64,000 nt of DNA. Source: Minisyncoccota bacterium. GTDB lineage: Bacteria > Patescibacteriota > Minisyncoccia > Phycocordibacterales > UBA9973. The stretch's first letter is position 1. Each line of letters opens with the position of its first letter. This document shows, piece by piece, positions 2,719 through 4,830 of the stretch. A program made the translations under genes and the position numbers. The stretch lies in the NCBI GenBank assembly GCA_041659205.1, contig JBAZYS010000001.1:54090-118089 (forward strand). Reading direction: 5' to 3'. The notes beneath the pieces are model-generated. The model was given only the letters and a program-made list of their open reading frames with translations. It was not told the DNA's origin and ran no database searches.

Positions 2719-4830
2719 ATGGAAAAAATTGAGGCGCAAAAAAGAATAAAGAAATTGCGAAGTGAAATCGCACGATTAAGAGATGCATATCATACAGAAG
2801 ATGCACCTGATGTCACAGATGACGTATATGATTCTTTGAACAGGGAACTTAGAGAACTTGTAAAAAAGTATCCTGAATTTGAAGATTTAAATGCTCCTGA
2901 AAATAGAGTAGGTGGAAAAGCCCTTGCTAAATTTGTAAAAGTTGAACATAAAAATCGAATGCTTTCATTAAACGATGCTTTCAGTGAGGAGGAATTATTT
3001 GATTGGGAAAAAAGGATTATGAAACTTTTGCCCGCAAAGACAAAATTTGATTATTTTTGTGAAGTGAAGTTTGATGGTTTGGCTGTGTCACTAATTTATG
3101 AAAAGGGTATTTTAATGCGTGGAGCAACAAGGGGAGATGGTTTTATTGGCGAAGACATTACCGAGAACTTAAAAACTATTCATTCTATTCCTTTATCTTT
3201 ACCCGAACCCTTTCCAGAATATTTAGAAGTGAGGGGAGAGGCTGTTATGTCTAAAAAGACATTTGAAAAGTTGAATTTAAATAATAAAAAAGAAGGCAAG
3301 ACGCCTTTTGCAAATACGAGAAATGCTGCTGCTGGAAGCTTGCGTCAATTGGACCCTAAACTTTCTGCAGAAAGAAAATTGGATTTTTTTGCATACGACA
3401 TAGCTTCCTCAGATGCTTTTACTCAGGATCTCCTGCTGCGCAACGTCGACCATTCGCAAAAGCATGCAGAGGAAGCTACTCACTCTAGTAAACACAAGTA
3501 TCTAAAAAGTTTAGGTTTCAGAGTAGATGAGAATGAGGCAATTTGTAAAAATTTAAATGAGGTTATAAGTTTTATTAGAAAATTTGAAAAAATAAGACCT
3601 GATTTTCCTTATGGTACTGATGGAGTCGTGATATCTGTCGATGATTTAAAAAATCAGGATATTTTAGGTGTTGTCGGTAAAGCTCCACGTTATATGGCTG
3701 CTTTTAAATATCCGGCTGAGAGGGCGACCACAATAGTCAAAGATGTAAAAGTAAATGTTGGGCGCACGGGGGTGCTTACCCCACTAGCTTTTTTTGAGCC
3801 GACGCTTGTCGCAGGTTCTAGGGTGTCAAAAGCGACTCTTCACAATATGGATCAAATAGAGAGATTGGATTTAAGAATAGGAGACACTGTTGTCATAGAA
3901 AAAGCTGGGGATGTAATTCCAAAGGTTGTAGAAGTTTTAGTACGTATGCGTACAGGGAAAGAAAAGAAATTTAAAATGCCAGAAGTTTGTCCTGTGTGTG
4001 GTGCAAAAGTAGAAAAAAAGAATTCTGGCGGGAAAAGGACAGTCCTTAAGAGAGTTTCCCAAAGGACTGTCCTTAAAGAGCCAGAATTTTCTGTCGCATA
4101 TTATTGTTCTAATCCAAAATGTTCTGCAAAAAATGAAAGGTATTTAGAACACTTTGTGTCTATCTTTGGAATTTATGAATTAGGTCCTAAAATTTTGCGA
4201 CGTTTTAAAGACGAAGGTTTGATAACTGATGCAGCTGATATTTTTACTTTAGAAAAAGAAGACATAGCTCCTCTTGAACGTTTCGGTGAAAAGTCAGCTG
4301 ATAATATAATTAATGAAATAGAAAAGAAGAAATATATAAGCCTTTCACATTTTCTTTGGGCTCTTGGGATCCTACATGTGGGGGAGGAGACAGCTCGAGA
4401 CTTAGCGATACATTTTGGTACATTAGAAAAACTTCTTTTTTCCGCGAGGCAAGATTTAGCGGAGATAGATAGTATTGAAAATATCGGGCCCGCGGTCTCA
4501 AAGAGCGTCAGTGCTTTTTTAAAAGATAAAAATAATTTGTCTTTTATAAAAAAATTAGAGGAAAATGGAGTGGTTATAAAACAGGAAGAAAAGAAAAAAG
4601 CAGGAAAATTTACAGGATTTAATTTTGTTCTTACGGGAACTTTATCCTCAATGTCACGAGAAATAGCTAAAGAAAAGGTACTTGCTTTTGGGGGGAAGGT
4701 GGTTAGTTCTGTGTCAAAGAACACTTCTTACGTTGTGGCGGGGGAGGAAGCTGGTTCTAAGCTGGCAAATGCTCTTAAATTAGGCGTAAAAGTATTAAGT
4801 GAGAAAGATTTTTTAAATATGCTAGGATAG
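2719..4830 (+). CDS. ligA: NAD-dependent DNA ligase LigA
   Basis: The adenylation-domain region, a CPVCG...C zinc finger, HhH motifs ([14 protein letters not shown]) and a C-terminal BRCT ([17 protein letters not shown]) are present. I chose the ATG at 2719 ([17 protein letters not shown]) over the upstream extension, which overlaps the pilX-like gene. Confidence 0.93.
3423..3457. repeat. GC-rich ~35-nt repeat element, copy 1 of 3, inside ligA
   Basis: tcaggatctcctgctgcgcaacgtcgaccattcgc is near-identical to 62161-62195 (1 mismatch in the first 29 nt) and to 42272-42306 (about 80%). Its GC content is far above the surrounding gene. Confidence 0.8.
4035..4074. repeat. 13-bp perfect inverted repeat (aaggacagtcctt / aaggactgtcctt) inside the ligA zinc-finger region
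   Basis: The two arms are exact reverse complements separated by 14 nt. They encode the duplicated peptide RTVLK...RTVLK within an about 20-aa extension of the C-x2-C...C zinc-finger spacing. Confidence 0.6.

Follow-up and report, generated by a model that had tools for sequence, protein, structure and literature searches.

A dispersed 40-bp palindrome within the LigA zinc finger of a Paceibacterota genome: a probable REPIN-like element read in-frame

Our study examined a 64,000-nt stretch of a Minisyncoccota contig (JBAZYS010000001.1, positions 54,090 to 118,089; here called the window), in which ligA, the gene for NAD-dependent DNA ligase, carries a palindrome inside its zinc finger. Window positions 4035-4074 are one copy of a dispersed 40-bp repeat that we name E, with the form AAGGAC-N-GTCCTT / AAGAGAGTTTCCC(C/A) / AAGGAC-N'-GTCCTT. 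E is probably a mobile palindrome of the ultra-small Nomurabacteria/Paceibacterota resembling the REPINs, which are built from repetitive extragenic palindromic (REP) units; it is read in-frame within LigA and is most likely mobilized by a Y1 transposase. Feature coordinates are collected in Table 1.

The ligA palindrome and its dispersed copies

The product of the host gene was identical to P0001, the LigA of a Candidatus Paceibacterota metagenome-assembled genome, and matched LigA structures in the PDB with E-values of 1e-46 to 2e-51. Its four zinc-finger cysteines (C424, C427, C463 and C468) showed no variation among 57 homologues. The spacing between CPVC (residues 424-427) and CSNPKC (463-468) was 35 residues, compared to 13-14 in the canonical-length loops of related LigAs (e.g. 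CPTCGTKIEKKEDLVASFC) and 18-20 in insert-free close relatives. The first-pass annotation of this DNA had put the excess at about 20 residues, and 23 extra residues were counted here; the nearest relatives, P0003 and P0004, lack this segment, their loops being 18 residues long. The alignment to Thermus filiformis LigA (1dgs) split in two at the zinc finger, where 26 query residues (108-133) stood against three residues of the structure. In an AlphaFold model, built upon an alignment of the 57 homologues, the pLDDT (predicted local distance difference test) score was <50 at residues 437-457, between modelled beta-strands at 430-436 and 458-463. The most economical reading of the model is that the insert would be a disordered extension of the tip of the zinc-ribbon hairpin, leaving the fold undisturbed.

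An inverted-repeat search agreed with the annotation that the two 13-bp arms are exact reverse complements, and each arm proved to be self-complementary apart from its central base. The translation likewise contains the RTVLK...RTVLK peptide that had been pointed out. Since the arms are nearly self-palindromic and lie 27 nt (nine codons) apart, this duplication is a by-product of geometry. The annotated extent was correct for the 13-bp inner stem only, as the pairing does not stop at 4035 and 4074. An imperfect inverted repeat (4021-4047 / 4062-4088, 27-nt arms, 81 % complementary) has the 13-mers as its inner stem, and an outer stem extends the structure to 4019-4090. This palindrome of 69-72 nt is a two-tier hairpin that folds at -36.2 kcal/mol as RNA (z -6.1, 0/200 shuffles) and at -20.9 kcal/mol as single-stranded DNA (z -7.3). 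For a perfect 13-bp inverted repeat whose gap is no longer than 30 nt, 0.13 occurrences are expected per shuffled window, and 24 of 200 shuffles had at least one; the arms alone are therefore marginal evidence. The palindrome is nevertheless clearly non-random, given how far its stem extends, the z-score of its fold and the reappearance of the same 40-mer at other places.

This recurrence was revealed by BLAST of the ligA inserts against fetched related loci, which located the core of E in pheT of L052 (97.5 % identity over 40 nt) and in L075 at a different position in ligA (92.5 %), where the central bases of both arms had changed compensatorily. In both genes the reading frame differs from that in the ligA of the window. 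Metagenome contigs were scanned for an exact 26-nt pattern consisting of the loop and 6 nt of each arm. The scan returned 76 stretches which, taken together with L052, L075 and the window, represent 68 distinct copies from related genomes and metagenomes, at least four of them on a single 354-kb contig. These copies share sharp 40-bp boundaries and a conserved spacer of 14 nt (also written AAGAGAGTTTCCCC), within flanks that are unrelated and variable, T-rich on the left and beginning with G, then A-rich, on the right. The two central bases can pair in 66 of the 68 copies (G/C in 40, A/T in 24, T/A in 2, mismatched in 2), and the 40-mer folds as single-stranded DNA at -12.2 kcal/mol (z -5.8).

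The annotation had suggested a small hairpin insertion tolerated in-frame, and this is borne out by the presence of the same 40 bp in other genes, in other frames and between genes. Twenty-six copies (38 %) lie deep in long open reading frames (ORFs), which continue across them in four of the six combinations of frame and orientation; the remaining two contain stop codons. Hosts confirmed by Pfam were PheT (phenylalanyl-tRNA synthetase beta), PurH, a class-V aminotransferase, Def, Fmt, TP_methylase, IF-2, UvrB and TopA, with E at three different sites in LigA and three in PurH. The net gain at the three E-bearing LigA sites was +10, +13 and +17-21 aa, the flanks being too diverged to give exact filled and empty boundaries. 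About 40 further copies almost fill short intergenic spacers, in both orientations, typically beginning 1-8 nt past a stop codon and ending 7-20 nt ahead of the next start. A scan of viral contigs yielded no match to E, and BLAST of all the ligA inserts against the rest of the window found none. No Rfam family matched E (the best score was 25 bits, where the gathering score is 54, and every hit fell far below threshold). An Rfam IS605-orfB match of 14.7 bits was likewise sub-threshold and was dismissed as chance.

The wider setting in LigA was assessed with 120 homologues of 71-83 % identity, whose lengths range from 667 to 784 aa. The alignment of orthologues that the annotation had proposed showed that the two Cys pairs are separated here by between 13 and 73 residues. 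The loop is short (13-20 residues) in about half of the homologues; in the others it holds inserts that belong to seven or more unrelated peptide families. The zinc-finger loop is an insertion hot spot, with an insert of 10 aa or more in 59 of the 120 homologues; a second spot (residues 237-251) has one in 44, and a few further sites are used occasionally. DNA was fetched for 80 related genomes and 33 loops of at least 36 aa were examined by folding. An extended spacing that is conserved without palindromy is the opposite of what was seen: 29 of these 33 loops fold at z -3 or lower, the remaining four reaching z -0.5 to -2.1. Overall, fold energies of the long loops ranged from -23 to -86 kcal/mol, with z down to -9.5, and short loops gave no hairpin fold. 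The same DNA cores were read in different frames across species, and one family occurred in both orientations; it is therefore the nucleotide structure that is conserved here, not the peptide. No frame-breaking insert was found in LigA among the loci examined.

Five LigA copies at the site of the window's insert (window, L087, L008, L022 and L024) have a common outer stem, TCTGGC...GCCAGA with internal loops, around inner cores that differ (AAGGACAGTCCTT, AAGGTCAGACCTT and AAAACCGGGCTTT). Among these five copies 98.9 % of cells pair and seven pairs are altered on both sides (0/500 shuffles); the outer stem of L087, for instance, shows a double compensatory change to TCCGGC/GCCGGA. This outer stem (TCTGGCGGGAAA...GGAGCCAGA) is no part of the dispersed 40-mer. 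The flanks of E in general are complementary above chance, with a mean longest stem of 3.88 against 3.19 (standard deviation 0.15) and stems of at least 6 bp in 14 of 66 copies against approximately 6 % expected. In uvrB (L111 and L128) and in L132, the 40-mer is nested in the arm of a sister element. Both insertion into pre-existing palindromes and outward growth of the palindrome by templated correction fit the outer tier and the nesting.

Y1 transposase genes flanked by the same palindrome

A query for the IS200 transposase TnpA gave no match, and a query for the E. coli RAYT (REP-associated tyrosine transposase) gave weak tblastn matches (E-value 0.004) that were borne out once the ORFs had been extracted. 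These ORFs of about 200-235 aa contain visible HUH (NHFH) and YIHLNP motifs and score 25.6-42.4 bits with the Pfam Y1_Tnp (IS200-like) model, above its cut-off of 23. Their homologues number more than 1,600 and were found mostly in Nomurabacteria-like bins and often on very short contigs. One clade was studied in detail at eight loci (L008, L037 and L052, which were in hand, and L157-L161, fetched for the test), representing seven distinct genomes, as L160 and L161 do not differ in protein or flanks.

Hairpins with the 13-mer core lay on both sides of the Y1 gene at all eight loci of this clade, for example CTTTTCGC[AAGGACAGTCCTT]GCGAAAAG upstream and CCTTTCGC[AAGGACTGTCCTT]GCGAAAAGG at the 3' end. 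Six loci contained the exact 13-mer; L052 and L159 had only AAGAACNGTTCTT, in which one compensated pair is different. Where both flanking hairpins were intact, the central base was complementary between the two sides of the gene. By our own estimate, about 0.01 13-mers of this kind would be expected in the approximately 85 kb that were chosen regardless of the element, and 14 were found, 12 of them within about 700 nt of a Y1 gene. With its GC-rich foot, the Y1-side 13-mer makes up a unit of about 25-29 nt that folds as single-stranded DNA at -13.5 kcal/mol (z -8.0). Some of the transposase-proximal hairpins start with GTAGC, ATAGC or TTCGC. Other Y1 clades are flanked by other palindromes. 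Furthermore, a Y1 gene ends 3.1-3.6 kb upstream of ligA at five loci, involving two enzyme clades, and the syntenic position in the window's own genome falls just before window position 1.

The gene directly downstream of the syntenic Y1 genes appeared by eye to be prepilin peptidase-like. Large serine recombinase genes (Resolvase/Recombinase/Zn_ribbon_recom) were present less than 10 kb from Y1 genes at L157:1-3191 and L160:17554-19131, and L157 also carries genes for a DNA methylase and a SacI-like restriction enzyme; these regions may be mobile islands.

Table 1. Coordinates of the features discussed (window positions unless a locus is named)
Feature	Position	Strand	Basis or remark
ligA, NAD-dependent DNA ligase, 703 aa starting MEKIEAQ	2719..4830	+	listed ORF; host of the palindrome
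Zinc-finger module CPVC...(35 aa)...CSNPKC	3988..4122	+	Cys spacing, homologue comparison, modelled flanking strands
Extra coding segment, 23 residues (LigA 435-457)	4021..4089	+	coincides nearly exactly with the palindrome; absent from P0003/P0004
Outer stem, 5' arm AGAATTCTGGC	4019..4029	+	fold; TCTGGC/GCCAGA pairing kept in five ligA copies at the site
Core arm 1, 13-bp near-palindrome AAGGACAGTCCTT (REP-like unit)	4035..4047	+	inverted-repeat search; flanks Y1 transposase genes in relatives
Core spacer/loop AAGAGAGTTTCCCA	4048..4061	+	family consensus ends CCCC; CCCA variant also in L129
Core arm 2 AAGGACTGTCCTT, exact reverse complement of arm 1	4062..4074	+	
Outer stem, 3' arm GCCAGAATTTT	4080..4090	+	fold, covariation
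Second in-frame ligA hairpin, 10-bp perfect inverted repeat TAGCTTCCTC / GAGGAAGCTA, residues ~228-254	3401..3478	+	fold
Syntenic Y1 genes upstream of ligA	L008:5743-6423, L037:2823-3410, L045:6046-6714, L052:6128-6832, L020:164-847		

Proposed mechanism and competing explanations

We infer that E is mobilized by a Y1 enzyme. In the mechanism that we propose, E would be a REP doublet that forms a hairpin, as in a REPIN, and would be moved in trans as a single-stranded DNA hairpin by an IS200-like Y1 (HUH) enzyme. In ligA, the copy of E lies inside the second, outer palindrome, and the whole occupies the beta-hairpin turn between the zinc-finger cysteine pairs. The palindrome would not be removed; reading through it in-frame would add about 21-23 residues as a presumptive disordered surface loop. 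E probably persists in ligA because it is free of stop codons in four of six frames, because the added length is a multiple of three and because the site tolerates insertions.

Several observations weigh against this account. The 13-mer recurs in other genomes and contigs, as was established when the genome search suggested by the annotation was widened, but within the 64-kb window itself there was no second copy with up to two mismatches, nor was there any Y1 transposase gene; the link to the enzyme therefore rests upon other genomes. The Y1 ORFs scored only 28-37 bits against the NCBIfam REP_Tyr_transpos equivalog (REP-associated tyrosine transposase), which has a cut-off of 80. Direct repeats of 3 nt or more, as a target-site duplication would leave, were absent from the flanks of all 66 copies of E tested, and 2-nt direct matches were present at ten of these compared to 2.9 expected. 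Neither a transposition intermediate, nor an empty/filled polymorphism, nor a target-site signature was found for E. Its length of 40 nt is no multiple of three. The outer stem and its internal loops need a separate explanation, such as an older element or templated extension of the palindrome. The E-bearing LigAs are not monophyletic, and the nearest relatives of the window's LigA (86-87 % identity over conserved columns) are short-looped; independent insertions, repeated loss or recombination could account for the history of the site. A single ancestral insertion in ligA was considered and is unsupported, as the nearest relatives are without the insert. Finally, that the insert is translated is deduced from the intact reading frame.

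An alternative, which we consider unlikely, is that selection maintains the hairpin because it has its own function as RNA or DNA, such as mRNA stability or processing, a translational pause or a binding site for a dimeric protein on the two 13-bp palindromes, with mobility being secondary. The double-sided pair changes and near-complete pairing among the five same-site ligA copies would suit such a role, although compensatory change can also arise without selection, through templated correction between arms or replacement by a sister element. Orthologous copies in priA (L106 and L112) share a rare AAGGGC variant despite diverged flanks; however, the scan required an exact 26-nt match, so that conservation at orthologous sites is biased by the manner of discovery. 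The stereotyped position of intergenic copies, right after a stop and 7-20 nt before a start, also points towards a function, yet the spacers are so short that any insert would adjoin both. The occurrence of E in both orientations and four reading frames is incompatible with a strand-specific RNA signal, and no Rfam family matches. Highly improbable, in our estimation, is a local origin with no mobile element involved, in which ligA replication went through template switching or snap-back synthesis. The ligA-specific outer stem and the above-chance complementarity of the flanks of E, which fits outward extension of hairpins by templated mutation, are consistent with such a process, but it could account for the outer tier only. 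A core of 40 bp that recurs unchanged or almost unchanged at 68 unrelated loci, and whose arms lie on both sides of transposase genes, can be no local product.

There is very little probability that the segment is a lineage-specific extension of the zinc finger whose peptide is selected and whose palindromy is incidental. The four cysteines and the frame are intact, and similar duplicated peptides (KRSDL..KRSDL and KKPGF..KKPGF) occur in several LigAs, yet this explanation is already contradicted by a peptide that varies while the pairing of the DNA is kept. The same DNA, moreover, appears in other frames of other proteins and between genes, the nearest LigA relatives lack the insert, the same loop is host to seven or more unrelated families of hairpin and the segment is modelled as disordered. 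We give almost no credence to the idea that the segment is missing from the mature ligase, whether as an intron-like element, as one excised in some other way or as an artefact of assembly. Introns are indeed numerous in the rRNA and tRNA genes of Patescibacteria (PMC13011429), and a short-read assembly, L162, ends 34 nt before the palindrome. However, all 26 genic copies are in-frame and stop-free, with none found to split a gene; an element of 40-70 nt is below the size of any known self-splicing intron, and Rfam was empty. The same ligA insert is also present in the independent assemblies L087 and P0022.

REPINs are doublets of two inverted REP units that form a hairpin and constitute a replicative unit (PMC3116915), and REP/REPIN elements with their RAYTs were defined in Pseudomonas and E. 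coli (PMC3116915, PMC3337134, PMC6006769). E resembles them in its unit, a short imperfect palindrome; in the pairing of two inverted units across a short spacer, an architecture shared by the 68 copies; and in its dispersed copies, which have sharp ends and no target-site duplication. As in REP-RAYT systems, the same palindrome stands on either side of an IS200-like Y1 HUH gene, in related genomes only, and such a gene sits in a syntenic position 3.1-3.6 kb upstream of ligA at five loci. In contrast to REPINs, E is only 40 bp long, built from 13-bp units, and apparently of low copy number (one in the 64-kb window and at least four on the 354-kb contig). The foot of REP hairpins bears a conserved GTAG or CGTC tetranucleotide (PMC3733652), whereas neither was found at the foot of dispersed E copies. 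REPs are extragenic by definition, whereas 38 % of E copies are genic and read through. Its candidate enzyme falls below the NCBIfam cut-off for RAYTs, and its host phylum, Patescibacteria, also sets it apart from known REP/REPIN elements. Within the limited literature covered, no description of such elements in Patescibacteria was found.

Rickettsia palindromic elements (RPEs) are in-frame palindromic elements (PMC10969869), and E is like them in being a palindromic repeat that lies in-frame, within a reduced genome, in housekeeping genes unrelated to one another, where it adds peptide at tolerated positions. However, RPEs are about 100-150 bp long, restricted to Rickettsia, without a known transposase partner and dissimilar to E in sequence, and E differs from them in occupying intergenic spacers as well and in having an identifiable candidate enzyme. 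E was thus rejected as a member of the RPE family, given its Paceibacterota host, its 40 bp and the in-frame behaviour that is all they share. MITEs, the miniature inverted-repeat transposable elements, are also small, non-autonomous elements with terminal inverted repeats, but classical MITEs derive from insertion sequences with DDE transposases and make target-site duplications; E was rejected as a DDE-derived MITE, having the inverted ends without the duplication. The palindromes of Nematomorpha are comparable in that inverted repeats lie within coding sequence and both arms are translated, although those are long and local, with no link to a transposase.

These findings would extend to the Candidate Phyla Radiation both the REP/REPIN-RAYT repeats known mainly from Proteobacteria and the in-frame coding palindromes known mainly from Rickettsia, and the two appear to be joined here in one system with a candidate enzyme. 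Elements of this type would explain much of the length variation among closely similar proteins of these reduced genomes, as in the LigA homologues above, and why the Pfam LigA zinc finger and similar domain models frequently fail to match there. They also offer a natural experiment on how far the zinc ribbon and other essential folds tolerate insertion. A broader proposal, which we put forward tentatively and with more doubt than confidence, is that REPIN-like elements of Nomurabacteria, serviced by Y1 enzymes, home to existing hairpins and palindromes and routinely colonize essential coding sequences. A few surface loops would then act as nested landing pads with fast turnover, continually supplying new loops to proteins. 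Among these pads would be the LigA turn, which at least seven families occupy in roughly half of the lineages, in some cases as two elements in tandem, and upkeep at orthologous sites would reflect selection or gene conversion, not neutral junk.

Further hairpins in LigA and the window

The second in-frame hairpin of the window's ligA (Table 1) folds at -27.2 to -27.8 kcal/mol (z -3.2 to -3.7) and corresponds to a stretch with pLDDT <50 at residues 242-251; it probably represents another family, as an older or decayed element, and is situated at the second hot spot. Two genomes, L004 (11321-11569) and L006 (11324-11548), have zinc-finger loops of 73 and 65 residues in which two different hairpin elements stand in tandem, one of them belonging to the same family in both genomes and lying in opposite orientation. 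At a third LigA site (codons ~100-115, between DWEKRIKKLL and YFCEVKFDG), very short G/C-rich palindromic inserts add 6-29 aa in L007, L008, L009, L010, L036, L050, L058 and others, with peptides such as PPLLYKGRGLGGEV and PPSTLQGEGRGGEV.

Elsewhere in the window, hairpins of 112 and 104 nt (62215-62326 and 62723-62826; -45.6 and -47.2 kcal/mol, z -5.8 and -6.6) lie in-frame within one 505-codon ORF on the + strand and look like other families of coding palindromic elements. An inverted repeat at 19519-19630 (19-nt arms, 95 % complementary, 74 nt apart; -33.5 kcal/mol, z -4.5) is in-frame in a 691-codon ORF on the + strand. No long ORF spans the perfect 14-bp inverted repeat ATCCCGTTAGAAGT / ACTTCTAACGGGAT at 11895-12017, which has 95 nt between its arms and folds at -35.2 kcal/mol (z -6.0). 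A palindrome with 18-nt arms, ATGGCCAGCTTAACCCCC / GGGGACTAAGCTGGCCAT, lies at 41956-41992 (z -7.2), at the 3' end of a 117-codon open frame. Just downstream of ligA, at 4906-5007, a perfect 14-bp hairpin (4930-4961) that resembles a terminator, with a T run behind it, is nested in a 12-bp inverted repeat, TTCGAATCTCTC / GAGAGATTCGAA, and the whole folds at -56.7 kcal/mol (z -10.9).

The independent short-read assembly of the same sequence, L162 (a contig of Logan SRR18595301), ends at window position 3987, and many Y1 transposase homologues are found on contigs of 1-5 kb only. The end of L162 near the palindrome and the short Y1 contigs therefore suggest that assemblies are broken by these repeats, and contig breaks of this kind call for caution in both annotation and assembly.

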